A stretch of DNA of 64,000 bases from NCBI GenBank assembly GCA_963824615.1, contig CAWGPU010000004.1:108852-172851 (forward strand). Reading direction: 5' to 3'. Numbering within the stretch: position 1 is the first letter of the stretch; every line of letters starts with the position of its first letter. This document shows, piece by piece, positions 7,954 to 46,398 of this stretch. The notes beneath the pieces were generated by a model. The model was not told where the DNA came from. It was given only the letters and a program-made list of their open reading frames with translations, and ran no database searches. Origin of the DNA: an uncultured Haloplasmataceae bacterium. Lineage in GTDB: Bacteria; Bacillota_I; Bacilli_A; Haloplasmatales; Haloplasmataceae. The translations under genes were made by a program, and so were the position numbers.

Positions 7954-8865
7954 ATGGCTGATTTATTATTGATACCGAAAATGGACATCATTTTTAAAAG
8001 AATTTTTGGTGATGAAAGAAACAAAAAAATATTAATTTCACTATTAAATGCAGTGTTAGGAATAAAAAAATCCGAATTATTAGATTTAACTATTTTAAAT
8101 AATGAATTATTACCAGAATTTCAAAATGAAAAACAAGGTATTCTAGATATGAGAATAAGATTAACAAATGGGGAATTAATCAATGTAGAAATACAAATCT
8201 TTCCATACGAAAGTATGCGAGAAAGAATTATCTATTATTTATCTAGAATGTTTGTTAGTCAGATTGAAAAAGGTATAAACTATAGAGCGCTAAAAAAATG
8301 TATAAATATAACGATACTTGATTATAATTTAACAAAAGGAAATCACGTTCATAGTATTTACCACTTAAATGAGGATGAAAATGATGAAACGCTCACCGAT
8401 ATTTTAGAAATACATTTACTAGAGCTACGTAAATTCAAAAATACAAATGATGATATATTAAGTTTATGGCTACAATTTATTAAATCAACAAAAAGGGAGG
8501 AATTTGAAATGGTTAGTTTAAAAGATGAAGATATTCAAAAGGCATATGAGGTTTTAGAAGAATTAAATAGGGATCCTAAATTAAAAGAATATTATGAAAT
8601 GTTGAATAAATGGGATCATGATAGAGATTCAATGATATATGATGCTAAAACGTTAGGTTATAAAGAAGGAATAGAAAAAGGGCTTGAAACAGGAAAAGAA
8701 GAGGGTAGAGAAGAAGGGAGGAAAGAAGGAAGAGAGGAAGGAAAAAAGAAAGTGACTGAAGCCCACGCTATAAAAATGTTAAAAGCCAACATCGATTTGG
8801 AGGTTATAAGTGAAGTGACAGGCTTAAGTGTTACTGAGTTAACTTTCATAAAGGATAATACGTAA
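7954..8865 (+). CDS. Rpn-family recombination-promoting nuclease / putative transposase (PD-(D/E)XK, YhgA-like)
   Basis: The N-terminus (MADLLLIPKMDIIFKRIFGDERNKKILISLLNAVLG) is typical of the Rpn/transposase_31 family. The C-terminal KEGxE(K/E)G repeats (KEGIEKGLETGKEEGREEGRKEGREEG) are characteristic of this family. Confidence 0.65.
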   Translation: MADLLLIPKMDIIFKRIFGDERNKKILISLLNAVLGIKKSELLDLTILNNELLPEFQNEKQGILDMRIRLTNGELINVEIQIFPYESMRERIIYYLSRMFVSQIEKGINYRALKKCINITILDYNLTKGNHVHSIYHLNEDENDETLTDILEIHLLELRKFKNTNDDILSLWLQFIKSTKREEFEMVSLKDEDIQKAYEVLEELNRDPKLKEYYEMLNKWDHDRDSMIYDAKTLGYKEGIEKGLETGKEEGREEGRKEGREEGKKKVTEAHAIKMLKANIDLEVISEVTGLSVTELTFIKDNT

Positions 8866-12381: not shown

Positions 12382-13020
12382 ATGAATAGAATTGGGGAAA
12401 TTAATATTGAGGTGGTCAATATTAAAATATCAATAAATAAAGCCAGTGAAATAGTTGGTGTGTCAATTAATACATTGAGAAGGTGGGAAAAAGAAGGGAA
12501 AATTACATCTGAACGAACAAAAGGAGGACATAGACGTTACGATAATAACTCCTTATTGGGATTAATAAACAAAGGGAATGAAAAACTTAGTATCGCATAC
12601 TGTAGAGTATCATCATTTGATCAAAAAGATGATTTAATAAGACAGATTAACACGGTATCAGAATATTGTATTGCTAGAGGATATCAATTTAGGATTATAC
12701 AAGATTTAGGTAGTGGACTGAATTATAATAAAAAAGGATTAAAAGAACTAATAGAATTAATATGCAGCCAAAGAATCAATCGAATCATCATCAATTATAA
12801 AGATAGGCTAATAAGATATGGATATGAAATCATAGAAAATATATGTGAGCTAAACGGTGTTAAAATCGAAATCATTAATCATACAGAAGATAAAACATAT
12901 GAACAGGAATTAGTAGAGGATGTATTATCTATTATTACAGTTTTTTCTTCAAAATTATATGGAAGTAGAAGCCATAAAATAAAAAAAATCAAAGAGGAAT
13001 TTATAAAACTAATGAAATAA
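12382..13020 (+). CDS. tnpA: IS607-family TnpA: MerR-type HTH fused to a serine recombinase (resolvase) catalytic domain
   Basis: The N-terminus (ASEIVGVSINTLRRWEKEGKI) is a MerR-like HTH. IAYCRVSSFDQKDDLIRQ contains the catalytic Ser of serine recombinases. The size (~200 aa) and the position upstream of tnpB fit IS607. Confidence 0.8.
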   Translation: MNRIGEINIEVVNIKISINKASEIVGVSINTLRRWEKEGKITSERTKGGHRRYDNNSLLGLINKGNEKLSIAYCRVSSFDQKDDLIRQINTVSEYCIARGYQFRIIQDLGSGLNYNKKGLKELIELICSQRINRIIINYKDRLIRYGYEIIENICELNGVKIEIINHTEDKTYEQELVEDVLSIITVFSSKLYGSRSHKIKKIKEEFIKLMK

Positions 13021-13124
13021 AGAGTTAATATGGAAGATAATATTAACTTTTTTAAATATATCAATCATTATTCATTGATAATCAAACAAATGTTTGCTAT
13101 AATGTATATAGGGGAGGTGGTAAT

Positions 13125-14360
13125 ATGATATTTAATAGAAGCGTTGAAATTACTTTTAATAAAAAAGATCAATTGATATTAGATGGTCAAAGTAAAATAT
13201 GTAACTGGTTATATAATCATTTATTAGAGATGGTTAAAAGTGATAAGGTATCCGGATTATTAGAAGGTAGAAATTTACGAAATGAAATACCAAAACTTAA
13301 ACTAGAAAAACCATTTTTAAAAAGTGTTTATTCATCACCATTAAAAAATGTAGCTTTTAGATTAATGTCAACATTTAATGGCTTTTTTAATTATGATAGA
13401 GGGTTTCCTAAGTTTAAATCTTGGAAAGTCAAATGGTTTTCTTTATTTTATGATGAACCTAACAAAGGATATAAAATAATCAATAATAAAGAAATACAGA
13501 TAAATTTAGGAAAAGATAAAGATAATAGACGATTAAAAGTAAATGGCTTATTAAATGAGTCATTACATTTAAAAGAAACCGATCAAATAAAGAATTTTAG
13601 AATCTGTAAAAAACGAAGAAAATTTTATGGCATATTCTGTATAGAGCGAATTGATATTGTCCCAAAACATGTGAACAGTTTTTTATCAATTGACCCTAAC
13701 CATAAGAATTTCTTTGTAGGAATTAATAATAAAGGTGAAAGTATCGAATTTGAGAAAATAACACAAATTCAATATTTTGATAAAGTAATCGATGAAATTA
13801 AATCAAAAAGAGATAGATGTAAAAAAGGTTCGAAAAGGTGGAAAAGATTAAATAGAGTAATAGATAAAACATATCACAAAAAACAAGAACAGATAAAGTC
13901 AATGTGTTATTGTGTATCTAATTATATAGCGAGAAACTATGATTGTGTATTAATAGGTGATTATACTCCTAGTTTAGAAACCGCAAAATACGAAACGATG
14001 CATCGGAGTATGTTAAACCAAACAATCATAGGAAAATTTAGAACGATATTAGAATGGGTGATGATAAGAAGTGGAAAACAATTTAAGTTAGTAGATGAAC
14101 ATGAAACAACGAAAGTATGTTCTATATGTGGTCATAGTGAAAAGAAGAATCCATCGATAAGAGAATTTGTTTGTCGCAATTGTGGGCGACATTTAAATCG
14201 AGATATTAATAGTAGTATAAATATCGCTAAAAAAGGAAATATATTGTCTGACTCGGACTTTGTTAAATGGGAATTATCTCATGTAACATATACTGCAAAA
14301 TGGGATTATAGGAAATCTAGAATCTTATTTACAGGCTATGCATCTAAAAAAGCTGCATAG
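13125..14360 (+). CDS. tnpB: TnpB (OrfB_IS605 RuvC-like RNA-guided endonuclease) with C-terminal zinc finger
   Basis: 411 aa. The C-terminal zinc finger reads CSICGH...CRNCGRHLNRDINSSINIAKKG, and a RuvC-like D...E...D arrangement is present. GGGGAGGTGGTAATATG RBS. This is the canonical TnpB architecture. Confidence 0.85.
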   Translation: MIFNRSVEITFNKKDQLILDGQSKICNWLYNHLLEMVKSDKVSGLLEGRNLRNEIPKLKLEKPFLKSVYSSPLKNVAFRLMSTFNGFFNYDRGFPKFKSWKVKWFSLFYDEPNKGYKIINNKEIQINLGKDKDNRRLKVNGLLNESLHLKETDQIKNFRICKKRRKFYGIFCIERIDIVPKHVNSFLSIDPNHKNFFVGINNKGESIEFEKITQIQYFDKVIDEIKSKRDRCKKGSKRWKRLNRVIDKTYHKKQEQIKSMCYCVSNYIARNYDCVLIGDYTPSLETAKYETMHRSMLNQTIIGKFRTILEWVMIRSGKQFKLVDEHETTKVCSICGHSEKKNPSIREFVCRNCGRHLNRDINSSINIAKKGNILSDSDFVKWELSHVTYTAKWDYRKSRILFTGYASKKAA

Positions 14361-26747: not shown

Positions 26748-29282
26748 ATGGAACCAATAAATTATATTACACTGATACCATTTATCGCCTGTGTTTTTTA
26801 TTTTATATTACTGATAATTCTGATGGGATCTAGAAATAATAAAATTGCGAAAGCTTATATTTATTATATAGTTGCCATGATTATCTGGAGTTTAGGATCA
26901 TTTGTCATGAAAACAAATTTTCCTCCTGGTTCCTTATTTTGGAACCGTATATTGTGTGTGGGTTTGATATCTATGCCTATCTTATTTTATAATTTCACAT
27001 TAGTGTTAACTAAAATAAAAAATCAGTTTTGGGTATTATGGATTGGAGTATTTACCGGAATTTTCTTTATCATTGCTAATTTTATGGGATTAATTATGAA
27101 ATCTGCCTATATGGATATGGTAAACAACCAATTTAACTATAAATTAGGACCTGTTGCACCAATAATGGCTATCTGGAGTTTATTATACTTAATATTGGCT
27201 TTTATGAACATTTTAGGTAAAGTGAAATCAAATGAAATCCCTTTTGTTCGAGTGAAATTGATTTTAATTGGTTTAGTTTTAGTAATTATTGGTGGATTGC
27301 TCAATTTAAATAATAAAATTGGTAGATATCCATTAGATATAATCTTAAATACAATTAATGCTGTGTTTATTGTCTATTCTATATACCGACATAAATTTTT
27401 AGAAATAAAATTAATTGTTAAAAAGGGTATTGCTTATTCTTTGTACACCATTATTTTAACTTGTGTATATTTAATCGCAATAGTTGGGGTTCAACTCATG
27501 TTAAGCCACATATTTGGCTACAGTAATATTACCTTAACGATTACAGTGGCCTTACTCTTAGCTATGATTTTTCAACCAATGAAAAATACATTACAACGAG
27601 GGATAGATCGTATCTTTTATAAAGAAAAGCTAAAATCACAAATGGTATTAAAGAATTTTAGTGAAATTATTAATAACATTCTTGATTTAAATGAAATACT
27701 AGATGCCATCATGAATGCCGTCAATAAACGATTACAACCCAAACAAATTCATATCGCCTTAAATGAGAATATTGATGACTATATTGTTTATGATCAAAAG
27801 GCTAACGAAGTCACACATCTCAAAATAAATAGTGATCACCCAATCGTCAAATGGTTTCTACAAGGAAAATCATTACTAACAATCAGCGAAATTCATAATC
27901 TTCCATATTTTTCAAGTTTATGGAGTATAGAGAAAAAGCAATTACTTGATATTAATACTGAATTGATTGTTCCAATTAAATTTAGAGATAAATTAATTGG
28001 GATGTTAATATTATCAGAAAAAAATGGTGGAGATGCATATACAGATGATGAATTAGATTTAGTTCATACAGTAGTTAATCATGCAGCCGCAGTAATTGAA
28101 AATGCTAAATTGTACGAAGAAGCAAAAGAACAAGCCATTACCGATGGCTTGACGAAACTATATAATCATCGTTACTTCCATGAAATTCTATCGGAAATTG
28201 TTGCTAAAAATAAGTATCAAGTATTTTCTATCGCAATGATTGATGTGGATTTATTTAAATTTTATAATGACCTTTATGGTCATTCCGCAGGAGATAGAGC
28301 ACTAGTCAGAATAGCACAAACGATAAAAGAAAATATATCTCTTAATGATATGGTCTTTCGTTATGGTGGCGAAGAATTTGCGGTTATTTTTCCTAATATT
28401 GAAGGTGAACAATCTTTAGAAGCGATTGAAAAAATTCGTAAAGCTGTGGAGTCTTCTTTTTACAATTCTTCTAATTATGGAGAATTTATGACTGTTAGTG
28501 CTGGCGTTGCTAATTATCCATATGTCAGTAAAACGGTTGAATTTGTTCTAGATTGTGCTGATAAGGCAATGTATACTGCTAAACAATCTGGACGAAATAA
28601 AGCTATTTTATATTCAGATAAGCAAATTAATAATGAAAAACCAGAAACTCAATTTGATTTAGAGAGTCTACAAGATAGTATTAAATCAGCTTATTTATCT
28701 TCTATCTATGCTTTAGCAGCAACAATTGATGCAAAAGATCGTTATACTTACGGACACTCAGAAAATGTGTCGAATCTAGCTGTGATTCTAGCAAAAGAAG
28801 CTGGTTTTTCTCCTGAAAAACTAGATGTGATTAAAAATGCTGGATTACTTCATGATATTGGGAAAATTGGTATTCCAGAAAATATTCTAACAAAACCTGA
28901 TAAACTAACTCCTGATGAATATCTCCTGATGAAAAAACATGTAGATATATCAATCACGATTATTAAGCACATTCCGAATTTAATAGAGGTCATCCCGGCA
29001 ATTATGAGCCATCATGAGAAATATGACGGGTCCGGTTATCCTTTAGGAAGAAAAGAGGAAAACATTCCGTTTGAGGGTAGATGTTTATGCATTGTAGATG
29101 CATTTGATGCGATGATTTCTGATAGACCTTATCGTAAAGCATTAGGTGTTCCGTTTGCGATTGCGGAATTAAAGAAATTTAGAGGCATTCAGTTTGATCC
29201 CAAATTAACAGATTTGTTTATTAATTTAGTAGAAAGTGGAAAACTAAATCATATTATTGATGTTACCAACAAAGGAAAATAA
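26748..29282 (+). CDS. multi-domain c-di-GMP signalling protein: N-terminal membrane sensor, GAF, GGDEF diguanylate cyclase and HD-GYP phosphodiesterase
   Basis: RYGGEEF is a GGDEF active site. HDIGKIGIP and HHEKYDGSGYP are HD and GYP motifs. The first ~250 aa form 7-8 TM helices. Confidence 0.8.
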   Translation: MEPINYITLIPFIACVFYFILLIILMGSRNNKIAKAYIYYIVAMIIWSLGSFVMKTNFPPGSLFWNRILCVGLISMPILFYNFTLVLTKIKNQFWVLWIGVFTGIFFIIANFMGLIMKSAYMDMVNNQFNYKLGPVAPIMAIWSLLYLILAFMNILGKVKSNEIPFVRVKLILIGLVLVIIGGLLNLNNKIGRYPLDIILNTINAVFIVYSIYRHKFLEIKLIVKKGIAYSLYTIILTCVYLIAIVGVQLMLSHIFGYSNITLTITVALLLAMIFQPMKNTLQRGIDRIFYKEKLKSQMVLKNFSEIINNILDLNEILDAIMNAVNKRLQPKQIHIALNENIDDYIVYDQKANEVTHLKINSDHPIVKWFLQGKSLLTISEIHNLPYFSSLWSIEKKQLLDINTELIVPIKFRDKLIGMLILSEKNGGDAYTDDELDLVHTVVNHAAAVIENAKLYEEAKEQAITDGLTKLYNHRYFHEILSEIVAKNKYQVFSIAMIDVDLFKFYNDLYGHSAGDRALVRIAQTIKENISLNDMVFRYGGEEFAVIFPNIEGEQSLEAIEKIRKAVESSFYNSSNYGEFMTVSAGVANYPYVSKTVEFVLDCADKAMYTAKQSGRNKAILYSDKQINNEKPETQFDLESLQDSIKSAYLSSIYALAATIDAKDRYTYGHSENVSNLAVILAKEAGFSPEKLDVIKNAGLLHDIGKIGIPENILTKPDKLTPDEYLLMKKHVDISITIIKHIPNLIEVIPAIMSHHEKYDGSGYPLGRKEENIPFEGRCLCIVDAFDAMISDRPYRKALGVPFAIAELKKFRGIQFDPKLTDLFINLVESGKLNHIIDVTNKGK

Positions 29283-29296
29283 AAGTTATTTATGGA

Positions 29297-29328
29297 TAAA
29301 AGGCCGCTTATATAAGTGGCCTTTTTAT
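29297..29328. terminator. bidirectional rho-independent terminator
   Basis: aaaaggccgcttatataagtggccttttt has A and T runs on both sides. Confidence 0.7.
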
Positions 29329-29424
29329 AGGGACTGACTTAAATGCAACCGTTCACAAGGATTTCTTACCTGTTACTTCATAGGTGTATCTAAACAAAAG
29401 AAAAAATATGGTAATCTATTTAAA

Positions 29425-29465
29425 AAACTACCAATAGGAATTATAGGTAGTTTTTTGTTTTAGAT
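29425..29465 (-). terminator. terminator at the 3' end of the gvp operon
   Basis: The aaaaaactacc...ggtagtttttt hairpin lies directly after the stop of the last gvp gene. Confidence 0.6.
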
Positions 29466-29490: not shown

Positions 29491-30273
29491 TTAACAAAAA
29501 TTATAAGGTGGCCATGGCCCTGAACATTCGATGATTATTCCACAATCCTGATAATTTTCTTTAAGTTGATTAATGGAATTCTGAAATTCATCGATTTGTG
29601 TTTGGTTAATTAAAACCGCACAGTTTAATATCATTTTTTCCTGAACACAAGTAATTTCTTTTGCCAGTAGTTTATTAGATTTAAGCTCTTTACAATAAGG
29701 TTTAACAGTCTCTATGATAGAATTAGCCGATGCAAATATTTTTTTCTCAACCTTATTATCTAAATCAATATCGAACTTCTTTTTAAGGAAAAAAGCTGCT
29801 CCTTTTGGTTTATTAAATAAACTTGCCGCAAAAGCAGTAATCTCTGCATTCATGGCTGTTTCCTTAAAGTGTTTAACGTCACAGTAAATTTTCACACTAT
29901 GTTCTTCACAATCCCTTAGTGAGTTTAAAGTTTCATTGAACAAATGATAATTTTCCGACAGTGCATCACGTAATCTATTTTCATTATTAAAAAGGGTTAG
30001 AAACTTCATGGGTATGCTGACCTTATTGCCGCTTAACAACTGTAAAATGTTCATAAATTTGCAAGCCTTTTCGGTTAGCCATTTTATGTCCTCACCCTTT
30101 ATTTTTAAATTCTCTTCACTATATTCATTTAAATAGACTTTACTATATATTCCAAACAATCCCTTGTATTCTATTGCGCAAATAGGATGGATATCATCTA
30201 TTCCTTTAAATGAGTTGTTATTTTCATCAAAGTGATTAACAATACAATATAAAAGCAATCCCTCTTCTTCCAA
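29491..30273 (-). CDS. gas vesicle protein, GvpF/GvpL family (third paralog)
   Basis: C-terminal SGPWPPYNF and an N-terminal LYCI-type start, as seen in the other two GvpF/L genes of the cluster. Confidence 0.7.
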   Translation of the reverse strand: MEEEGLLLYCIVNHFDENNNSFKGIDDIHPICAIEYKGLFGIYSKVYLNEYSEENLKIKGEDIKWLTEKACKFMNILQLLSGNKVSIPMKFLTLFNNENRLRDALSENYHLFNETLNSLRDCEEHSVKIYCDVKHFKETAMNAEITAFAASLFNKPKGAAFFLKKKFDIDLDNKVEKKIFASANSIIETVKPYCKELKSNKLLAKEITCVQEKMILNCAVLINQTQIDEFQNSINQLKENYQDCGIIIECSGPWPPYNFC

Positions 30274-30276
30274 AAT

Positions 30277-30627
30277 TTAATTTCCTCCCTCTATTTTTGT
30301 TTCTAATTTTTCCATTCTTTTTAATAGTTTCGTATTTTGTGCTTCAAGTAGTTTCATTTTTTTATTCTCTTCTAATTTTTCTTGTTTTTCAGCATTTAAT
30401 TTCGCCTTAGTTGATAAATTCGGGTCGGACATCCACCAATCTATTCCCATCTCTTTTGCTTTATCTATAGAAGCAATAATTAAACGTATTCTTATCGTCA
30501 GTAATTCTACGTTTGCTATCGCAATACTGATATCTCCCGCTATAACAACACCCTTATCAAGAATTTTTTCGAGTATATCCCCTATTGTACTTGATGAGGT
30601 TGATTGATTTATATAATTTCCTGCCAT
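30277..30627 (-). CDS. gvpJ: gas vesicle protein GvpJ (GvpA-family fold with C-terminal extension)
   Basis: TIGDILEKILDKGVVIAGDISIAIANVELLTIRIRLIIAS is a GvpA/J core. It carries a Lys/Glu-rich tail. Confidence 0.75.
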   Translation of the reverse strand: MAGNYINQSTSSSTIGDILEKILDKGVVIAGDISIAIANVELLTIRIRLIIASIDKAKEMGIDWWMSDPNLSTKAKLNAEKQEKLEENKKMKLLEAQNTKLLKRMEKLETKIEGGN

Positions 30628-30643
30628 TTACTTTCATCCTCCT

Positions 30644-30988
30644 TCACATTAAATTTCCTAGTGGACCCAAATTTAAATTTAAATCTTCCTCTTCAAGTCC
30701 AAATATATCTCTTAATTCTATCATTTTCTCCTCAAGCTTCATGAAAGCTATCCCTAATTGTTCAATCTCCTCGTCATTTACTGTTCCATTTTCCATCCGT
30801 CTCATGGCTTGTTTCTCCATAAGTTTTCTTAATAATTCAATTAATGTTAGAACAAGCTTTGCAAGACCTTGTTCAACACCCTCAGGGTCTGCATTGAGTC
30901 TATTTTTAAATCCATTATTAATATTAGATACTTCACTCATAAAATCATCATTGTCAAAATTAGAATTATCATTCATTTTCATCACCAA
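30644..30988 (-). CDS. gvpK: gas vesicle protein GvpK
   Basis: LAKLVLTLIELLRKLMEKQAMRRMENGTVNDEEIEQLG matches the conserved GvpK core. Confidence 0.8.
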   Translation of the reverse strand: MVMKMNDNSNFDNDDFMSEVSNINNGFKNRLNADPEGVEQGLAKLVLTLIELLRKLMEKQAMRRMENGTVNDEEIEQLGIAFMKLEEKMIELRDIFGLEEEDLNLNLGPLGNLM

Positions 30989-31688
30989 CTTTTGTTAATT
31001 TTACAAAATGATATGGTGACCAGGGGCCACTAAATACAAATTTATAATTTGCGTGTTTGTTTTTTAATTCTTCAACACGAAAAGTAAATTGTTCAATATT
31101 TGTTTTATATACGAGGTATGCTCCATTAAATATTAAGTTGTTTTTAAAAGGTTTAACTAAATTACTCTCGCAAGCTATTTCTATTAATTCTTTATTTATC
31201 TCATCTAAAACAATTTCAATCGCTTTTAGTTGTAATTTTCGATTGAGATATCGTTCATATCTCTTTAACATATATGATTTTGGATTTTCGTTTTCTATCT
31301 TGTCAAACTTATCTTGATGTTCATAATCTAGTTTATAAAATATCTTAACGCCTAATTCAACTTTTCCCTTTACGCGATCAAGATTTTCTATAAATTGTAA
31401 GTAATATTGTGTTAGCATCAATATAACACTATCCTCATTTATACTGATTGTTGAAAAACTAAGGGGTAGTACACTACTAAATACCATCGCACAACTGGCG
31501 ATTTTTTCATGACATTGAAGATTTTCAAAAGTAGGTTCATATCTCGATTTATGGGTTTTACTGACTAAGGCACAGATATCCTCATAATGAATCACCGTTA
31601 TTTTCTTATCATCCATTCCTAATAAATCTATGCATGTATCATCTGAAATTTTTGATGTTATACAATAAATATAATAATTTTCTGTCAT
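30969..31688 (-). CDS. gvpL: gas vesicle protein, GvpF/GvpL family (second paralog)
   Basis: Contains KGKVELGVKIFY and a C-terminal SGPWSPYHF. Confidence 0.75.
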   Translation of the reverse strand: MTENYYIYCITSKISDDTCIDLLGMDDKKITVIHYEDICALVSKTHKSRYEPTFENLQCHEKIASCAMVFSSVLPLSFSTISINEDSVILMLTQYYLQFIENLDRVKGKVELGVKIFYKLDYEHQDKFDKIENENPKSYMLKRYERYLNRKLQLKAIEIVLDEINKELIEIACESNLVKPFKNNLIFNGAYLVYKTNIEQFTFRVEELKNKHANYKFVFSGPWSPYHFVKLTKVGDENE

Positions 31689-31689
31689 C

Positions 31690-31884
31690 TCAATCCGTAA
31701 GCTCCTTCCTATCTCCTCTAATCGTATCTACCGAACTAATGGCTAACCGTAATCCAACATAAATTAAATCAATATTAGCAATTGATATCATGAGATCCCC
31801 ATGGATGAGAATTCCTTTATCAAGCAATCGATCTAGAAGATCAAGGAGGGTCATCTCTTTTTCATTTTCACTTAAATTAGACAT
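31690..31884 (-). CDS. small GvpA-family gas vesicle protein (GvpS/GvpM-like)
   Basis: LLDLLDRLLDKGILIHGDLMISIANIDLIYVGLRLAISS is a GvpA-fold core in a 64-aa protein. Confidence 0.65.
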   Translation of the reverse strand: MSNLSENEKEMTLLDLLDRLLDKGILIHGDLMISIANIDLIYVGLRLAISSVDTIRGDRKELTD

Positions 31885-31888
31885 ACCC

Positions 31889-32122
31889 TCACTCCTCTCT
31901 CATTTCATGTTCTTTTTTATATTTTTTTATTTCCATCAATTTCTCTAAAATAACTGTTTCTTCTGCTTCGTACTCATCTTCTGTTATTTTGCCACTATCA
32001 AACAATTCATATATTTCATCGAGAGCCTCCTTATAGGGAGTCTCATCGTAAAGTTCTTTTTCAGCCTCGTTATAAATTATTTCAAATATCTTTTTTATAC
32101 CTCGGAAAAGCATTGTTATCAT
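31889..32122 (-). CDS. gvpG: gas vesicle protein GvpG
   Basis: 77 aa. MLFRGIKKIFEIIYNEAEKELYDET...GKITEDEYEAEETVILEKL matches the GvpG pattern (helix plus EYEA motif). Confidence 0.7.
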   Translation of the reverse strand: MITMLFRGIKKIFEIIYNEAEKELYDETPYKEALDEIYELFDSGKITEDEYEAEETVILEKLMEIKKYKKEHEMREE

Positions 32123-32140
32123 CTCCCTATAAAATATTAT

Positions 32141-32887
32141 TTAATTAATCTCTATCCGAATATTAGTAAAATTATAGGGAGCCCAAGGACCAGTATAGCT
32201 AAAAATTAGTTTCTCATTATATAATGTTTTAAATTTTTCAACAGTCTCATCAAAAATAGCCTCATTTGCTTTATCAACTAAGAAATAACAATTTAATATA
32301 GTTTTAATCGGTAAATTTTCTTTAAATTTACTTTCAGTAGCTATCTTTTCTAAAGGGGTATAGATTTTTTCACGGTATATTTCTCGTTTTTCTTTTATGG
32401 CAGCTTCTACCATTTTACCAAGTAAAATCTTTTCATTTAATACTTTATTTTCTTCTTTTCCTTCAATTGCTTGCTTAAGTTTCATTATTTTTTCATCTTG
32501 TATATCTTCATCAAAATAGAGAGCATCCCAAGTAATCTTTAACCCTAACTCTACTTGATTTTTTAATCTTCGAATATTCTTCAAAAACAGTTCGTAATTG
32601 GATTTTATGATGATTTCAATTCCTTTTTTGTTATTTGCTACCGTGCCAAAAGCAACAGGAATGATCGTATACTCTTCTAATACTAGATTCAATACCTTTT
32701 GATGGGCCAAAGAATTTTTTCTTGATGGAAGATAATCTATAATTGGTGCATCACTAACAACAGCGGCTATTTCATCTAGATTTATTGTATAAACAGGTGC
32801 ATTAAATCCACAAATAGATGAGGTGCCAAAATTTTTCTTTTCTTTTTCTTTTATGAAACAATATAGATATTTTCCCATTAATGCCAT
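32141..32887 (-). CDS. gvpF: gas vesicle protein GvpF (GvpF/L family, first paralog)
   Basis: Contains LYCF, KNQVELGLKITW and TGPWAPYNF. Confidence 0.8.
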   Translation of the reverse strand: MALMGKYLYCFIKEKEKKNFGTSSICGFNAPVYTINLDEIAAVVSDAPIIDYLPSRKNSLAHQKVLNLVLEEYTIIPVAFGTVANNKKGIEIIIKSNYELFLKNIRRLKNQVELGLKITWDALYFDEDIQDEKIMKLKQAIEGKEENKVLNEKILLGKMVEAAIKEKREIYREKIYTPLEKIATESKFKENLPIKTILNCYFLVDKANEAIFDETVEKFKTLYNEKLIFSYTGPWAPYNFTNIRIEIN

Positions 32888-33165
32888 TACTTATCACCTT
32901 CAACATCAATTATGTCTTGTTGGTTTATATTGGGATTATTTAATTTCTCAATTGCTTCTTCAAATTGTTTATTATCTGATATTAATTTCATATTAATTGT
33001 GTATTTGCCAACGAGTAACTCGCTTTCTTGTGCTTTAATGTTTCCACTAATATTAATCTCTTGCCCCTCGTTACTAACCATATCTTCCATAATTTTAATA
33101 ATACTTTTAATCCTGCTTGTAATAAGACTGATATTATTTATTTTTTCATTTTCAACAGTTGACAT
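32887..33165 (-). CDS. uncharacterised 92-aa protein encoded inside the gvp operon
   Basis: Translationally coupled to gvpF (stop and start share a nucleotide). Acidic. No recognised Gvp family by eye. Confidence 0.4.
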   Translation of the reverse strand: MSTVENEKINNISLITSRIKSIIKIMEDMVSNEGQEINISGNIKAQESELLVGKYTINMKLISDNKQFEEAIEKLNNPNINQQDIIDVEGDK

Positions 33166-33180
33166 TATATCACCTCAATC

Positions 33181-33441
33181 CTAGTCATTATCTACTGTAG
33201 CGCGTTTTCTTGTAGAGATGAGTTCAAAGCTATTAACTTCTTGTTTATCTGTAACATGTATTTCATAAATTTCTACTATGTCTCCAATACCTTTGCGCGT
33301 TGTATACTCTGGGTCTACTAATACCTCACATACTGCCTTCCAATAATGTTCTTCTCTAACTACAGATATGACCCTACAATTTTGATCTAAAACAATTTTA
33401 AAGAATTTTCTTACCCATTCTATGCAATCTATAATGGTCAT
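33181..33441 (-). CDS. uncharacterised 86-aa protein in the gvp operon (possible GvpO/GvpR-like accessory protein)
   Basis: Occupies the position between gvpN and gvpF where B. megaterium has gvpR/gvpO-like genes. Sequence assignment is uncertain. Confidence 0.35.
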   Translation of the reverse strand: MTIIDCIEWVRKFFKIVLDQNCRVISVVREEHYWKAVCEVLVDPEYTTRKGIGDIVEIYEIHVTDKQEVNSFELISTRKRATVDND

Positions 33442-33456
33442 TTTATCCCTCCTTAC

Positions 33457-34425
33457 TCAATCGTTTAAAGTATTGTAAAATACATTATGGATTGACTTAT
33501 TAACAATTTTATATAAAAATGCTTTCTCTGTTTCATCTAATCCATCATTTGATAATTGTGTACCGAATATATCCATACATATTTCCTTTAATGCTGCACT
33601 ATCTGGTGATAGCTTGATTCTCTGTTTACTAATGATATTTGCCATCATCAAACTACTCCGTATGGAAACTAATTTTAAATCCCGCATTTCTTTTCTAATT
33701 TGTTTCGTTATTTTAATGATCTTCTCTGCCTCAGATGATGTTAGATTCGATTTGGAGACTATTATTAATTTTTCAGTTTCCTCGTCCATTGAAGTAATAT
33801 CAATTGTAATCATCCTATCAATTAAGGCATTTGTTGATTTGAATACACCAACATATTCACTAGGGTTACTAGTGAAAATCATTTTAAAATCTTTACTTAT
33901 ATTAATAATTGAATTACCATTTACATTTTCAGGTACCTCTAATATTCTCTCTTCAAGAATTGGGAGGAGGATATTGTTTACTTCAGGGCTAGTTCTGGTA
34001 AATTCATCATAAATAAAGGTATATCCGTTTTTACAAGCGGTAACTAATTTACCATCTGTCCAAAGTTTTTTTTGTTCTTCTTCCCGTTTATATACCGAAC
34101 TGATAAAATTATCGATTACTAAAGTATTCTTGCTTCCATAAAAATTTCCAATCATTTCTGATTCACCTAGTTCCTTACTTCCGCATATATATATTATAGG
34201 GTTACCAAGTTCCTTTGCAATATGGAAGGCAAGAGAAGTTTTACCAACACCTGCAGGTCCTCTTAAGTGTACGGGGTATCCAGTATTTAGATACCATGAT
34301 GCCCGTTCTGATAAACTATTAGTGTAGTCGGTCTGAATGAACATACTTTGATTAAGAAAATTATAGTCTTTGTTTTTACTCACTTTCTCACCACCTATCT
34401 TTATTATTACGGCTAAGCAAGGCAT
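33457..34425 (-). CDS. gvpN: gas vesicle protein GvpN (AAA+ ATPase)
   Basis: Walker A GPAGVGKTS and Walker B-like FIYDEF in the GvpN/CbbQ/NirQ arrangement. The alternative GTG start at 34383 (AGGTGGTGA RBS) may be the true start. Confidence 0.8.
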   Translation of the reverse strand: MPCLAVIIKIGGEKVSKNKDYNFLNQSMFIQTDYTNSLSERASWYLNTGYPVHLRGPAGVGKTSLAFHIAKELGNPIIYICGSKELGESEMIGNFYGSKNTLVIDNFISSVYKREEEQKKLWTDGKLVTACKNGYTFIYDEFTRTSPEVNNILLPILEERILEVPENVNGNSIINISKDFKMIFTSNPSEYVGVFKSTNALIDRMITIDITSMDEETEKLIIVSKSNLTSSEAEKIIKITKQIRKEMRDLKLVSIRSSLMMANIISKQRIKLSPDSAALKEICMDIFGTQLSNDGLDETEKAFLYKIVNKSIHNVFYNTLND

Positions 34426-34547
34426 TAAATGACATGATGCTATTCACTTAAGTAGCTAAGTGATGAATTATAACCACTCATAAAAAGAACCCTGCTTAAC
34501 CAGTTGTACTTATTAATTATTGACTAGAGTACTAATTAAAATGATTG

Positions 34548-34760
34548 TTATGCTTCATGAAGTCTATCGTGTTTTAAAAGACCTACTGCATCAGCATAAA
34601 CTAACCAGGTTCTAACACAGGCGATTACGATTCTAGCTTCAATTGCCAATATTTCAATTCCCACTAAAGAAACTTTAGCCCACAAATCAACTACTATTCC
34701 TTTATCTAGGATTCTGTCAATTACTTCGACAAGGCTTGAACTTTCAACCGATGTTTTCAT
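34548..34760 (-). CDS. gvpA: gas vesicle structural protein GvpA
   Basis: [41 protein letters not shown] is near-identical to the universal GvpA core. AGGAGG RBS. Confidence 0.9.
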
Positions 34761-35011
34761 AGTTTAACCTCCTTTATAACTGAGTAGCTTTTTATCGCTC
34801 TAATTCATATTATTGAAAAATCGACAAAAATGTTACAAGTTAGGGACTAAAATTCACGCCCTTTTATTGACTGTTTCCTTTGTCACAAGTGCTGATTAAT
34901 TTAAATATAATTAGAAATTTTACAAATTATTCCTTTTAGTACAATTAAGTGATTGAGTAAAAAACATGATTACATTCTCAATATTTTAGAAATTAAATAT
35001 AAAAGTAGATT

Positions 35012-35048
35012 AAAAGAAAACCTTCGTTTTTAATAAAAACGGAGGTTT
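35012..35048. terminator. bidirectional hairpin terminator upstream of the gvpA promoter region
   Basis: aaaaccttcgttttt...aaaaacggaggtttttt. Confidence 0.5.
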
Positions 35049-35184
35049 TTTAATATGTAATAAATAAAATTGTAGTAAAAAATAAAAATAAAAGACTAAC
35101 TCAAAGGAAATGATTACAAAGTCCTAAAAAAATAAAATCTTAATAATGAGATTAATAAAAATAGTGACTTATTGAGTAATGTCT

Positions 35185-35217
35185 TGACAAAATTAAAAAA
35201 ATTGTGTTATAGTGAAG
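35185..35217 (+). promoter_or_regulatory. near-consensus sigma-A promoter with extended -10 (TTGACA ... TGtTATAGT)
   Basis: TTGACA at 35185, then a 15-nt spacer, then TGTTATAGT. The RBS AAAGGAAGTGA and the small ORF at 35238 follow. Confidence 0.55.
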
Positions 35218-35237
35218 TAATTAAAAAGGAAGTGAAT

Positions 35238-35336
35238 ATGAATAAAGTTTCTTTAGAAAAAAATTCAGTTTTACAGATGGGTGTTAGAAAAAAGATTTCT
35301 GCTGTTTTCTTCATTTTTTTATTTAGACGATGTTAG
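35238..35336 (+). CDS. small ORF (32 aa, MNKVSLEKNSVLQMGVRKKISAVFFIFLFRRC)
   Basis: Strong promoter and RBS. Hydrophobic C-terminus. It lies upstream of a membrane-protein/ABC-ATPase pair and is below the ORF track cutoff. Confidence 0.3.
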   Translation: MNKVSLEKNSVLQMGVRKKISAVFFIFLFRRC

Positions 35337-35574
35337 AGTGAGATTCACCTTGACAATTTAAATACCTAATTCTTACGATAAACTTATCACAAAGCGATTG
35401 TTAATTTTTTCTAGTTAAGAAAATAATTTGATTATAGTCTAAATTCTGCATTAAAATGAATAAACAAGTAAAAATTAACAATTAGTAACCAATACTGATA
35501 AAATATTCAATAATATATATTTTTCATTATTGAGTTGGTATAATTCAAATGTAAAAAAATATGGAGGTTTAATT

Positions 35575-36306
35575 ATGTTTGCATTAAATTTTAAAAAAGA
35601 TTGGCGAATGAACAAATCATTATTCATAAGTTTCTTCGCAATATTATTCTTACTTTTATTTGTAAATACCGCTTTTTTTATTGTTTTAAAGAACATTAAC
35701 CCTGGAACCACTTATGATGTTCTCAGAACAATATGGGGATTCTTAGCAACCCTTTCATCATTAATAGGAACGATTTTGACCATAGTATTGATGTATTTTG
35801 TTTTAAAGAATGATTTAGGTAAAAATAAAATACAATATTCTATTTTTACACCGCAATCTATCTTATCATGGTATCTGCCAAAAGTATTGTTTGTATTAAT
35901 AGTACAAGGATTATTTGCGCTAATTGACTTAGGATACACTTATTTCGTTTTTGATCTTATTAAATCTGTAGGTCAAACAGTTAATTTTAATTTTTGGGAT
36001 AATATGACATTATTCTTAACAAAAACATTTAATTTTGGTTTCTTTGCCCTTTTGACTTTATGCATTGCTTTATATTACTCATTTAGAAAAAAAGGATTGT
36101 CATGGTTCTTAATTGTCGTAGCTGTTCTTATTTATTTCATTGGTGATATTTCTTATACAATTTACCAACAAATACAATCATCATTGCATGATACGACATT
36201 TAAAAATATCCCAACTATGGTTATTCCATATGTTATTAAAAATGTTATTGGTTTAGTTTATCTTTTCATTTCAATATATCTATTTGATAAAAAGATAGAA
36301 TATTAG
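35575..36306 (+). CDS. polytopic membrane protein (putative permease partner of the downstream ABC ATPase)
   Basis: GGAGG 7 nt before the ATG at 35575. About 6 TM helices. Confidence 0.45.
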   Translation: MFALNFKKDWRMNKSLFISFFAILFLLLFVNTAFFIVLKNINPGTTYDVLRTIWGFLATLSSLIGTILTIVLMYFVLKNDLGKNKIQYSIFTPQSILSWYLPKVLFVLIVQGLFALIDLGYTYFVFDLIKSVGQTVNFNFWDNMTLFLTKTFNFGFFALLTLCIALYYSFRKKGLSWFLIVVAVLIYFIGDISYTIYQQIQSSLHDTTFKNIPTMVIPYVIKNVIGLVYLFISIYLFDKKIEY

Positions 36307-36317
36307 GAGGTATTAAA

Positions 36318-37022
36318 ATGATAGAAATTAAAAATCTTACACAAAAATTTGGAAGCACTATTGCGATTCAAGATATAAATTTAACTTTGAATAAAGGTGG
36401 AATTATTGGACTTATTGGACCAAATGGATCTGGGAAATCAACGATAATTCGCTCAATCATGGGTATTTTGAAACCTTCTACAGGCTCTGTTTTAGTGGAT
36501 GGTGAGCCTGTTAATCGACAAATCAGTAAAAAAATAGCTTATTTATCAGATATTAATGAATTATACTTACCAACAGTTCTACAAAATATTGATTACTTTA
36601 CAAATCTTTACCAAGATTATGATAAAAATATAATGATGGACATTATTAATAGTCTTCATATAGATTTACATATGAATGTGAAAGGTTTATCAAAAGGACA
36701 AAGCATGATAGTTCGCTTTGCTTTAACAGTTGGAAGAAAAGTGGATTATGTCTTATTAGATGAACCGTTAAGTGGATTAGACCCAGTATTCCGTGAAAGT
36801 TTTATTAAACGATTAGCTGATTTTCGTGAAGATAATCCTAACGTGACTATTATTCTTACTTCACATATGTTAAGAGAAATTCAAGGCTTATTAGATGAAG
36901 TTATTGCGATTTATTTTGCTAAAATATTAGCATATGATAAAAAGGAAAATATTCTAAAAGACAATGAAGATCTTGAAGCTTGGTTTAAAGAAGAATATGT
37001 AAAAGCAGGTATTAATTTTTAA
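36318..37022 (+). CDS. ABC transporter ATP-binding protein
   Basis: Walker A GPNGSGKST, signature LSKGQSMIV and Walker B VLLDEP. Confidence 0.75.
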   Translation: MIEIKNLTQKFGSTIAIQDINLTLNKGGIIGLIGPNGSGKSTIIRSIMGILKPSTGSVLVDGEPVNRQISKKIAYLSDINELYLPTVLQNIDYFTNLYQDYDKNIMMDIINSLHIDLHMNVKGLSKGQSMIVRFALTVGRKVDYVLLDEPLSGLDPVFRESFIKRLADFREDNPNVTIILTSHMLREIQGLLDEVIAIYFAKILAYDKKENILKDNEDLEAWFKEEYVKAGINF

Positions 37023-39006: not shown

Positions 39007-39576
39007 ATGGACAAAGAAAGAATCGAGAAAGCAGTAAGGGAGATACTTGAAGCGATTGGTGAAAATCCAAATAGAGAGGGATTAATTGATACACCTAAAA
39101 GAATAGCTAATATGTATGAAGAAATTTTTTCGGGTCTAAATGAAGATCCTCGAAAACACTTGAAAATATTCTTTCAAGAAGAACAACATGAGGAAATGGT
39201 TTTAGTAAAAGACATATCGTTTTATTCTGTATGTGAACATCATTTAGTGCCGTTTTTTGGCAAAGTGCATGTTGGTTATTTACCAAAGGGTGGTAAATTA
39301 ACAGGATTAAGCAAATTGGCACGAGTAGTTGAAACGGTTTCTAAAAGACCGCAAATTCAAGAAAGATTGACGACAACGATTGCTGATGTATTAATGGAAG
39401 AATTGACACCATATGGTGTTATCGTTGTTGTTGAAGCAGAACATATGTGTATGACTATGAGAGGTGTTAAGAAACCAGGGTCACAAACGGTTACCTCGGC
39501 AGTAAGAGGATTATTTAACAAAGATGCAAAAGCAAGGGCTGAAGCGATGTCACTAATTAATTTTGGACGCCATTAA
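39007..39576 (+). CDS. folE: GTP cyclohydrolase I
   Basis: The conserved [10 protein letters not shown]...GKVHVGYLP...LSKLARVV and QERLT motifs are present. Confidence 0.9.
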
Positions 39577-39588
39577 TAGGGGGTAAAA

Positions 39589-40437
39589 ATGAGAGGTATT
39601 GATTATAGAATCCAACGAAGAGTAGATTTACAATGTGGCCCATACCTGCTTGAATTTGGGAAAAGAACTTATATAATGGGGATATTAAATGTAACACCAG
39701 ATTCTTTTTCAGATGGTGGTGACTTTACTGATTTAGAGGAAGCGATTCATCATGCGAAAGAGATGGTTTCAGACGGTGCCGATATTATTGATATTGGTGG
39801 AGAATCAACAAGACCAGGAGCAGCTTTTGTGAATAGTGAGGTAGAACTAGAACGTGTTTTACCCGTGTTAAAAAGATTGGTTAAGGAAATTAAAGTACCC
39901 ATTTCAGTTGATACATATAAAGCTAGTGTCGCTAGGAAGGTTTTAGAAGCAGGGGCACATATCATTAATGATATATGGGGTTTACAAAAAGACCCTGAAA
40001 TAGCGAATGTTATTGCCGAGTATGAGGTTCCTGTTATCATTATGCACAATAGAATTGATACCGAATATAAAAATGACATTATGGAAGAAATTGTCACCTT
40101 TTTTAATCAGTCCATTTCTATTGCTTTAAACGCTGGTATAAAAGCGAATAATATCATTTTAGACCCAGGTATTGGATTTGGAAAAACCCTTGAACAAAAT
40201 ATCATTGTGATGAAGCGATTAGGTGAATTAAATGATTTAGGTTATCCTATTTTATTGGGGACATCAAGAAAATCATTGATAGGCAAAACATTGAACTTGC
40301 CTCCAAAAGAAAGAGTAGAGGGAACTTTAGCGACAACGACTATGGGTATTATACAAGGAATTGACATTGTGAGAGTTCATGATATTAAAGAAAATATTAG
40401 AGTAGCTAAATTCACAGATAAGATTATAAGAGGTTAA
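39589..40437 (+). CDS. folP: dihydropteroate synthase
   Basis: Contains the GILNVTPDSFSDGG pterin-binding start, DIGGESTRPGA and GTSRKS. Confidence 0.9.
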   Translation: MRGIDYRIQRRVDLQCGPYLLEFGKRTYIMGILNVTPDSFSDGGDFTDLEEAIHHAKEMVSDGADIIDIGGESTRPGAAFVNSEVELERVLPVLKRLVKEIKVPISVDTYKASVARKVLEAGAHIINDIWGLQKDPEIANVIAEYEVPVIIMHNRIDTEYKNDIMEEIVTFFNQSISIALNAGIKANNIILDPGIGFGKTLEQNIIVMKRLGELNDLGYPILLGTSRKSLIGKTLNLPPKERVEGTLATTTMGIIQGIDIVRVHDIKENIRVAKFTDKIIRG

Positions 40438-40441
40438 TCAA

Positions 40442-40807
40442 ATGGATAAAATTTTAATGAAAAATTTATCGTTTTATGGTTATCATGGAGTACTTAAAGA
40501 AGAAAATCGATTAGGTCAAAAGTTTTTTATCGATATTGAATTATTAACGGATTTAAAAGTTGCTGGTAAATCAGATGATGTTTCCGACACCATTAATTAT
40601 GCTGCTGCCTTTGAATTAGTTAAAATTATCGTTGAACAAAATAAATTTAATTTAATTGAAGCGTTAGCTGAAACAATCGCGAGTTCAATTCTTTCCACTT
40701 ATTCTAAGGTTTTAGAAGTAGTTGTGAAGATACGGAAACCAGAGGCACCAGTAAATGGAATTTTCGATTATTTTGGTGTCGAAATAAGGAGAATGCAAAA
40801 TGTCTAA
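40442..40807 (+). CDS. folB: dihydroneopterin aldolase
   Basis: Contains FYGYHGVLKEENRLGQKFFIDIEL. 121 aa. Confidence 0.85.
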   Translation: MDKILMKNLSFYGYHGVLKEENRLGQKFFIDIELLTDLKVAGKSDDVSDTINYAAAFELVKIIVEQNKFNLIEALAETIASSILSTYSKVLEVVVKIRKPEAPVNGIFDYFGVEIRRMQNV

Positions 40808-41285
40808 AGTTTATATTAGTATAGGTAGCAATATGGGAGATAAGCAAGGACATCTAGCTAAAGCGGTACAATTATTAAATATGCATGATGCAATTACCGT
40901 GATTAAAGAGTCTGCTTATTATGAGACACTACCTGTGGGGTATACCGACCAAGAAAATTTTATCAACCAAGTGATTGAATTAGATACCATTTTATCCCCT
41001 GATGAATTATTAGATTATTGTCAATTGATAGAATTTCAATTAAAAAGAAAAAGAGAAATCAAATGGGGACCACGTACAATTGATTTAGATATCTTACTTT
41101 ATGACAATCAAAAAGTACATAATGAAAGATTAATTATTCCACATCCACGAATGATTGATCGTGCTTTTGTCATGGTTCCGTTATATGAAATAGCTCCAGA
41201 ACTCACAATTTTCAATCAAAACATTAACCAAATTATAGATAATTTACAAAAAACAATTTCTGAAAATATTATAAAAAAACTTTAA
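40800..41285 (+). CDS. folK: 2-amino-4-hydroxy-6-hydroxymethyldihydropteridine pyrophosphokinase
   Basis: Contains YISIGSNMGD...WGPRTIDLDILLY. Overlaps the folB stop. Confidence 0.85.
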   Translation: MSKVYISIGSNMGDKQGHLAKAVQLLNMHDAITVIKESAYYETLPVGYTDQENFINQVIELDTILSPDELLDYCQLIEFQLKRKREIKWGPRTIDLDILLYDNQKVHNERLIIPHPRMIDRAFVMVPLYEIAPELTIFNQNINQIIDNLQKTISENIIKKL

Positions 41286-45641: not shown

Positions 45642-46025
45642 ATGATATATCTTTCAATCGGATCATTTGGTATAATTGGTGCCTTATTACGGTATTATCT
45701 TGGGATTTCTATCCATGAATGGTGGGTATATTCGTTTCCACTAGGAACACTTCTAATTAATTATATTGGCGCATTTACTTTAGGATGGTTTACTTATAAT
45801 GTTGCTCATTTAAAAATTCCTGAATGGTTTCGTATTGGCTTTGCGACAGGGTTAATTGGTTCTTTTACCACTTTTTCAACATTTAGTGTTGAGACGGTGA
45901 ATTTATTAGATAAAGGATTAATTATATATGCTTTAGGGTACGTTGCCCTCAGTTTATTTGGTGGTTTAATGTTTCCTTTCTTAGGATACAGAATGTCTAA
46001 AGTTATCACTAGAGAGGGGGAATAA
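45642..46025 (+). CDS. crcB: fluoride ion channel CrcB/FluC subunit
   Basis: ~125 aa with 4 TM helices and the GFxGxFTTFSTF motif (GLIGSFTTFSTF). Confidence 0.8.
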   Translation: MIYLSIGSFGIIGALLRYYLGISIHEWWVYSFPLGTLLINYIGAFTLGWFTYNVAHLKIPEWFRIGFATGLIGSFTTFSTFSVETVNLLDKGLIIYALGYVALSLFGGLMFPFLGYRMSKVITREGE

Positions 46026-46029
46026 AGAC

Positions 46030-46398
46030 ATGATTTTAAATGGAGTATTGGTAGCTTTTGGAGCGTTCTTGGGAGCGACTAGTCGTTTCGCTGTCAGTAA
46101 ATGGATTGATAATAAAATGACTTCAAAATTCCCCTTTGGGACAATAGCAGTTAATTTATTAGGCTCATTTTTATTGGGTATTATTATCGCAAGTCAGGGA
46201 AATAATCAAATATCATTGTTACTCGGTACTGGTTTTATGGGGTCCTTTACGACTTTTTCGACTTTTAAAGTTGAAAGTATTAAATTAGGATTAGAAAAAC
46301 GATGGTATTTGTTATCAAGATATTTAATTTACAGTTACGGTTTAGGGATTGTTTTAGCGTTTTTCGGCTATTTTATTGGGAAACAACTCTATTACTAA
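46030..46398 (+). CDS. crcB: fluoride ion channel CrcB/FluC subunit (second paralog, heterodimer partner)
   Basis: Contains GFMGSFTTFSTF. 122 aa. Confidence 0.8.
   Translation: MILNGVLVAFGAFLGATSRFAVSKWIDNKMTSKFPFGTIAVNLLGSFLLGIIIASQGNNQISLLLGTGFMGSFTTFSTFKVESIKLGLEKRWYLLSRYLIYSYGLGIVLAFFGYFIGKQLYY

Follow-up and report, generated by a model that had tools for sequence, protein, structure and literature searches.

A compact gas-vesicle gene cluster in an uncultured Haloplasmataceae bacterium

Layout and gene identities

The stretch of DNA considered here, hereafter the window, comprises 64,000 nucleotides (nt) of contig CAWGPU010000004.1 (assembly GCA_963824615.1, positions 108,852 to 172,851 of the forward strand) from an uncultured Haloplasmataceae bacterium, and carries on its minus strand a set of gas-vesicle protein (gvp) genes that very probably constitutes a functional, self-contained operon. 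In the open reading frame (ORF) listing of the 27.5-37.5 kb region, eleven intact and closely packed ORFs run from 34760 down to 29491 (Table 1), where a preliminary description of the sequence had indeed placed eleven tightly packed genes; their order, gvpA-N-O-H'-F-G-S-F2-K-J-L, occupies 5.27 kb. Adjacent genes overlap by up to 20 nt or stand up to 18 nt apart, with the gvpA-gvpN spacer of 122-164 nt as the sole exception, and the ORFs are furnished with ribosome-binding sites and coupled junctions. The GC fraction of the cluster (0.29-0.30) shows no departure from that of the whole window (0.24-0.34).

Products of nine of the eleven genes match curated Gvp families of Pfam and NCBIfam above or near the respective thresholds, and the hidden Markov model (HMM) scores, set against the cut-offs, place these matches far beyond chance. 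The Pfam comparison proposed in the preliminary description found the A, N, G, K and J/S domains and all three F/L domains above curated cut-offs, rather than the lack of matches that it had named as the contrary outcome; its principal claim, a complete gvp operon in an AT-rich, Firmicute-like genome, is borne out by these matches together with the syntenic relatives described below.

Table 1. Coordinates of the gvp genes and associated features (window positions unless a locus label is given; aa, amino acids).
Feature	Position	Strand	Description
gvpA	34548..34760	-	major shell protein, 70 aa; PRK09371, PF00741
gvpN	33457..34383	-	AAA+ ATPase, 308 aa from GTG 34383 (322 aa from ATG 34425); TIGR02640
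gvpO/gvpR-like (orf86)	33181..33441	-	86 aa; hhalign 98.9%
truncated gvpH-like (orf92)	32887..33165	-	92 aa, N-terminal module only; hhalign 96.2%
gvpF	32141..32887	-	248 aa; PF06386
gvpG	31889..32122	-	77 aa; PF05120
gvpS/gvpM-like small GvpA paralog	31690..31884	-	64 aa; PF00741
third GvpF/L-family paralog (F2)	30969..31688	-	239 aa; PF06386
gvpK	30644..30988	-	114 aa from TTG, later start possible; PF05121
gvpJ	30277..30627	-	116 aa, GvpA-like domain and charged helical tail; PF00741
gvpL-type GvpF/L paralog	29491..30273	-	260 aa; PF06386, NCBIfam GvpL
intrinsic-terminator-like hairpin 3' of last gene	29422..29456	-	fold z = -3.2
hairpin and U-run upstream of cluster	35017..35049	-	fold z = -3.4
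candidate gvpA promoter, TTGTAA-18-AATAAT	34809..34838	-	consensus scan 9/12
Cdc48-like ATPase of other gvp loci	L082:1696-3816; L088:3925-6057; L089:3881-6004; L090:11797-13917; ~48 of L002-L081		CDC48_N and two AAA domains, ~705-760 aa

Three genes are of the GvpA type and three of the GvpF type. GvpA itself scores 110 bits against its NCBIfam model (cut-off 100) and 49 bits against Pfam Gas_vesicle (cut-off 25), is 73% (46/63) and 76% (44/58) identical to the solved gas-vesicle shells of PDB entries 7r1c and 8gbs, respectively, and agrees in its core with 78 other GvpA sequences wherever these are invariant. Against the same Pfam model and cut-off, the small gvpS/M-like product reaches 60.8 bits and the gvpJ product 53 bits; their best NCBIfam models are halo_GvpM (37 bits, under its cut-off) and halo_GvpJ (49 bits), respectively. 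His/Asp-rich C-terminal tails, for example HDYEPHHDHDYDHGNGHDHYAIGMA, which look like metal-binding sequences, are carried by the GvpA proteins of two related loci (L083, 3505-3771; L084, 135-395) and are not found on GvpA of the window.

GvpN is recognized by the gas_vesic_GvpN equivalog with 296 bits (cut-off 266.8) and by Pfam AAA_5 with 74 bits, and its Walker A (GPAGVGKT) and Walker B (YDEF) motifs fall in invariant columns of a 15-sequence alignment; translation probably starts at the GTG at 34383, which is preceded by GGTGGTGAG, rather than at the ATG at 34425. More than 1000 GvpN homologs were retrieved, the nearest of which (50-65% identity) lie on Clostridia-type contigs and include the annotated GvpN of Clostridium sp. 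ZS2-4, Anaerocolumna and Herbinix. GvpG and GvpK match their Pfam families with 51.5 bits (cut-off 30.6) and 116 bits (cut-off 25), GvpK being 80-81% identical to its counterparts in L083 and L084.

The three GvpL_GvpF proteins score 189 (gvpF), 152 (F2) and 152 (gvpL) bits in Pfam (cut-off 23.6), and none of them reaches the NCBIfam equivalog cut-offs of 200 and 350, which are narrow, having been built for cyanobacterial and haloarchaeal proteins. For the gvpF product, the cyanobacterial GvpF model of NCBIfam yields 91 bits versus 62 bits for GvpL, the GvpF structures 6l5d and 4qsg of the PDB are matched with E-values of 6.5e-19 and 1e-15, and the gene is the top match for the GvpF-position genes in all compared loci. 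The last gene of the cluster shows the reverse preference (GvpL 76 bits versus GvpF 32 bits) and is the best match for the GvpL-position genes of the Bacillaceae loci, at 113 and 95 bits, where the other two paralogs reach 37-50 bits. The remaining paralog, F2, sits between gvpS and gvpK; the best matches of its product occupy the same slot in six further loci (L003, L020, L035, L036, L046, L069), and a third F-type gene between gvpS and gvpK is found in clusters of Chloroflexota, Planctomycetota, Proteobacteria and Desulfovirgula, while a counterpart is missing from both Bacillaceae loci (L037, L051). The three paralogs had been correctly counted in the preliminary description, but its labels gvpL (30969-31688) and gvpF3 (29491-30273) are swapped according to the GvpL and GvpF scores; likewise, the C-terminal motif that it gave as GPW[AS]PY[NH]F reads GPWPPYNF in the third paralog, so the pattern becomes GPW[ASP]PY[NH]F.

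The two genes between gvpN and gvpF

The two genes that follow gvpN, orf86 and orf92, had been left unnamed; both ORFs are real, and names can now be given to them. With 17.5 bits, orf86 stays below the gathering score of Pfam GvpO (PF05800; 25), and its homologs, which are few and all located on Clostridia-type contigs, score 21-23 bits. A profile of the orf86 family aligns over its full length (hhalign 98.9%, E 1.3e-17) with the proteins that occupy the GvpO/GvpR slot in Bacillaceae, Desulfovirgula and Symbiobacteriaceae clusters, one of which passes the Pfam gathering score at 26.4 bits. The AlphaFold 2 model of orf86 is confident (predicted local distance difference test score, pLDDT, 87.6) and places a helix on a four-stranded sheet in a cystatin/NTF2-like fold. 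Because of the profile alignment, the one slot protein that passes Pfam and the confident model, orf86 is treated as a divergent member of the GvpO/GvpR family; its ribosome-binding site, AAGGAGGG, is strong.

No Pfam or NCBIfam family matches orf92, and only a 93%-identical twin was retrieved in a word-indexed search of 5.8 billion proteins and a HMMER scan of 1.8 billion representatives; an apparent match to the low-complexity repeat protein P0140 was judged spurious on inspection. Additional syntenic loci link this apparent orphan to the N-terminus of GvpH: residues 9-65 align with the N-terminal 50-60 residues of GvpH/Hsp20-like proteins of 170-200 aa, whose genes stand behind gvpN/gvpO in many gvp clusters. 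The alignment reaches 26-34 bits with phmmer, 41 bits with an HMM built from three sequences and 96.2% (E 2e-9) with hhalign. The full-length relatives score 23-38 bits against HSP20 (cut-off 20.8) and 18-26.6 bits against Pfam GvpH (PF05455), one of them above the cut-off of 22. The window protein ends at residue 92, before the alpha-crystallin domain, and has no HSP20 or GvpH Pfam match; judged by its sequence, it is a GvpH fragment, the N-terminal module, and not a full member of the family.

The fragment retains a strong ribosome-binding site (GAGGTGA), and its stop codon overlaps the gvpF start (TAATG). Relative to the twin contig L085, orf92 differs by six synonymous and seven non-synonymous changes, as compared with four and none in the adjacent head of gvpF, which is why its constraint is considered weak at best; a rough estimate of the ratio of non-synonymous to synonymous substitution rates from the same pair is about 0.3. 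In L083, the positional counterpart is reduced to 77 aa of this module (HMM 40 bits); for it, a direct BLASTP comparison with orf92 gives no match and a Smith-Waterman comparison is only suggestive, 12 of 2000 shuffles scoring as well. The AlphaFold 2 model of orf92 (pLDDT 54.5) is too poor for a fold search. The tail of orf92, ISDNKQFEEAIEKLN, was considered as a leftover of the C-terminus of a Cdc48-like ATPase brought in by a deletion-fusion; the motif lines up, but the match amounts to 3 bits (E ~50) and does not support the proposal. Altogether, orf92 is probably a dispensable GvpH remnant.

Completeness and comparison with other gvp clusters

The gene content can be set against two experimentally defined essential sets. 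In Bacillus megaterium, gvpB, N, F, G, L, S, K and J are required and gvpR, T and U are dispensable (PMC11223475; PMC11445434); in haloarchaea, the eight genes A, O, F, G, J, K, L and M are described as sufficient in work cited in PMC11223475 and PMC7688916. The window cluster holds all eight B. megaterium essentials and counterparts of all eight haloarchaeal essentials. The GvpC family has no match among the eleven products, the Cdc48-like ATPase discussed below is not in the cluster, and no other gvp-related ORF is found elsewhere in the window.

Three compact clostridial relatives from metagenomes, L083 (JGI 3300042934), L084 (Logan SRR28019981) and L088 (from sediment), have their genes arranged like those of the window, A-N-O-(H')-F-G-S-F2-K-J-L, with proteins that are 53-82% identical. 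The same cluster, with one difference in 8682 nt, is present in an independent public run (L001, Logan run ERR11594399). Among the relatives, L084 has no gvpH remnant at all, whereas L088 keeps a full-length GvpH-like gene (191 aa) and a 710-aa Cdc48-like ATPase, and L089 also keeps full-length GvpH and the ATPase. This ATPase, a double-AAA protein adjoining a GvpH/Hsp20-like gene (Table 1), accompanies GvpH in at least 48 of 80 fetched gvp loci from many phyla, and its position between H and F matches the gvpH-gvpZ-gvpF2 arrangement of Serratia.

A close characterized comparison is pNL29 of B. megaterium (gvpB-R-N-F-G-L-S-K-J-T-U), which likewise belongs to the Firmicutes, lacks GvpC, and has the same essential set, a GvpO/R-like gene and a similar size (11 genes, ~5-6 kb; PMC11223475). 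Its gene order is not that of the window, as the preliminary description had stated: the O/R gene stands before gvpN in B. megaterium and after it in the window, the GvpL-type gene follows gvpG in the former and sits at the 3' end in the latter, and the window has an extra F-family paralog between S and K, giving an S-F2-K-J-L block, as well as the GvpH remnant. The synteny comparison that had been suggested there gives the same picture, in that the Bacillaceae loci L037 and L051 are ordered A-O-N-F-G-L-S-K-J while L083, L084 and L088 share the order of the window. The two ORFs after gvpJ of L037, used as queries in place of named GvpT/U references, have no homologs in the window cluster (E > 1).

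A larger clostridial type is represented by Clostridium sp. ZS2-4 (GCA_026719745.1, L090) and by L002, L068, L071 and L082, some of which are Lachnospiraceae-like. It shares the N-O-H-...-F-G block with the window (GvpN ~50% and the orf86 family 44-59% identical), and it differs in having two or three gvpA copies, a full GvpH/Hsp20 gene, one or two Cdc48-like ATPases and long GvpL-like proteins, without the S-F2-K-J-L block. This type also encodes a ~360-aa fusion of an N-terminal GvpA-like domain with bacterial PH/GRAM-like domains, which measures 359 aa in L082 (7738-8817) and L090 (18021-19100). Further afield, Serratia sp. ATCC 39006 has three GvpA-type and three GvpF-type genes, as does the window, and all six are essential there (PMC4982088); of the Halobacterium salinarum genes, A, N, O, H (in part), F, G, J, K, L and M have counterparts (PMC7688916). 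In contrast to these two systems, the window lacks GvpC, the regulators GvrA/B/C and GvpD/E, and GvpI, V, W, X, Y and Z, and presents a single 5.3-kb operon instead of 14-19 genes in two units.

Characterized systems are also the guide to whether vesicles would be produced here, in what shape and at what time. By analogy with them, GvpA would polymerize into a ribbed shell with a hydrophobic lining, from which water is kept out and into which gas enters by diffusion, while GvpF, GvpL, the third F-paralog, GvpG, GvpK, GvpJ and GvpS would form the nucleation and chaperoning complex. The AAA+ protein GvpN would drive the growth of bicones into cylinders, probably aided by the GvpO/R-like protein. 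The vesicles would probably be unbraced, as in B. megaterium, because the cluster is without GvpC.

Boundaries, neighborhood and interpretation

Both sides of the cluster are marked by A/T-rich hairpins followed by U-runs. The one 3' of the last gene, AAAAAACUACC...GGUAGUUUUUU, was equaled in stability by 2 of 200 shuffled sequences, and the one 260 nt upstream of gvpA, which would insulate the cluster from upstream transcription, by 1 of 200. The terminators that the preliminary description had seen on both sides are real as structures, although neither was picked up by a consensus terminator scan, which demands at least three G-C pairs. Between gvpA and gvpN, an attenuator or terminator was sought and discarded, as no hairpin with a U-run occurs in the spacer and its fold z of -1.8 is not significant. 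L083 and L084 share with the window a conserved block ahead of gvpA, GTAAC-N15/16-CAATAnAATGnAnTAG.

The neighboring genes are otherwise ordinary chromosomal ones, including those for folate synthesis, an ammonium transporter, ABC transporters, crcB and opp. Convergent on the 3' end of the cluster is the gene for an 844-aa protein (26748-29282, plus strand) with seven-transmembrane, GAF, GGDEF and HD-GYP domains of cyclic di-GMP signaling, followed by its own terminator at 29298-29325; no functional link to gvp is drawn, because this neighborhood is not conserved in L083. Divergent from gvpA, a near-consensus sigma-70-type promoter (TTGACA-18-TG-TATAGT, 11/12; 35184-35336, plus strand) precedes a 32-aa ORF with a good ribosome-binding site and then genes for a membrane protein and an ABC ATPase (35530-37022). 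In Firmicutes, crcB and folate gene sets are often preceded by fluoride or tetrahydrofolate riboswitches. No Rfam match at gathering score and no tRNA was found in the whole window, the crcB pair at 45642-46398 and the folE-folP-folB-folK set at 39007-41285 notwithstanding. On the left side of the window, at a distance of over 15 kb from gvp, lie an IS607-like pair (12382-14360; a serine recombinase with a MerR helix-turn-helix and a TnpB/Cas12f-like protein), a DDE transposase (3624-5282) and a PD-(D/E)XK transposase (7954-8865). Each of the housekeeping proteins tested forms a cluster of its own at 90% identity, and the source lineage is without close sequenced relatives.

Several points weigh against a functional operon. 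Gas vesicles are here a prediction from the genes, and a complete-looking gvp cluster need not be productive, as in Streptomyces coelicolor, in which vesicles have never been seen (PMC4982088). No regulator lies in or beside the cluster, and the 9/12 match of the candidate gvpA promoter is, taken alone, no better than chance. Moreover, GvpA of the window carries rare residues in helix alpha2, with C48 in place of the S/G of 78/78 other GvpA sequences, R50 in place of E/D (68/78) and V54 in place of K (58/78); an i/i+4 charge pair on the outer surface may thereby be lost or inverted.

These residues would also suit a cryptic or decaying cluster, in which the truncated gvpH and the lost Cdc48-like ATPase are the first signs of erosion; the lack of an alpha-crystallin domain in orf92, its faster change than that of its neighbors and the retention of both full-length GvpH and the ATPase in L088 and L089 point in the same direction. 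Such decay is nevertheless quite improbable, considering that the ten other genes are intact with their invariant residues kept, that Halobacterium and Serratia do not require GvpH and B. megaterium and Anabaena do not possess it (PMC7688916; PMC4982088), and that B. megaterium functions without a Cdc48-like ATPase; L083 and L084, furthermore, have kept the reduced layout although identity to them is no more than 53-82%, which speaks for long-term selection. Equally improbable is a recently acquired mobile island: the cluster does lie on the strand opposite to nearly all of its neighbors with a reversed local GC skew, between hairpins, beside flanking genes that differ in L083 and in a window with transposases at 3.6-14.4 kb, but it matches its surroundings in GC content, the 15 kb on either side are free of integrase, transposase, repeat and tRNA features, and a reversed skew is the simple product of a minus-strand operon.

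A different question is raised by the proposal that the genes act at the sporulation stage and build the "gas caps" of endospores rather than vegetative buoyancy organelles. In anaerobic spore-formers, descriptions of spore-attached gas vesicles go back to the 1970s-80s and cover Sporohalobacter lortetii, Orenia sivashensis and Clostridium species from soil (PMC4187190), and the clostridial origin of the nearest GvpN relatives and the non-canonical conserved motif upstream of gvpA are in keeping with this proposal. On the other hand, a sigma-A-like TTGTAA / TAnAAT pair is an alternative reading of the conserved block, the gvpA promoter region yielded no assignable consensus for sigma-E, -K, -F or -G, and no sporulation family was found among the ~55 larger ORFs scanned in the window, within which the "apparently spore-forming" host of the preliminary description thus finds no support. 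Gas caps are for these reasons judged unlikely, though less so than decay or recent acquisition; since the proposal concerns timing only, it is compatible with a functional, self-contained gvp operon.

Within that reading, the cluster adds a compact case to a well-known system and introduces no new kind; gvp clusters have already been annotated in many Clostridia and other Bacillota, and a specialist would not be surprised by one here. A more speculative account, which is offered with considerable doubt, holds that the operon was naturally minimized from an L088/L089-like ancestor (N-O-H-Cdc48-like ATPase-F...) by shedding the ATPase and the alpha-crystallin half of GvpH, with the 92-aa module still translated and under some constraint, and that it could also underlie spore gas caps. 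If this were true, the 5.3-kb operon would be one of the smallest complete gvp clusters to occur naturally and would make a useful chassis for acoustic reporters; if the 92-aa module were functional, it would show with which of its parts GvpH engages the assembly complex. Irrespective of this account, a compact cluster without GvpC, Cdc48-like ATPase or regulator, yet with all experimentally essential parts, is a candidate for acoustic reporter genes, and the window together with L083, L084 and L088 forms a natural deletion series for GvpH and the Cdc48-like ATPase that indicates which accessory losses are tolerated.

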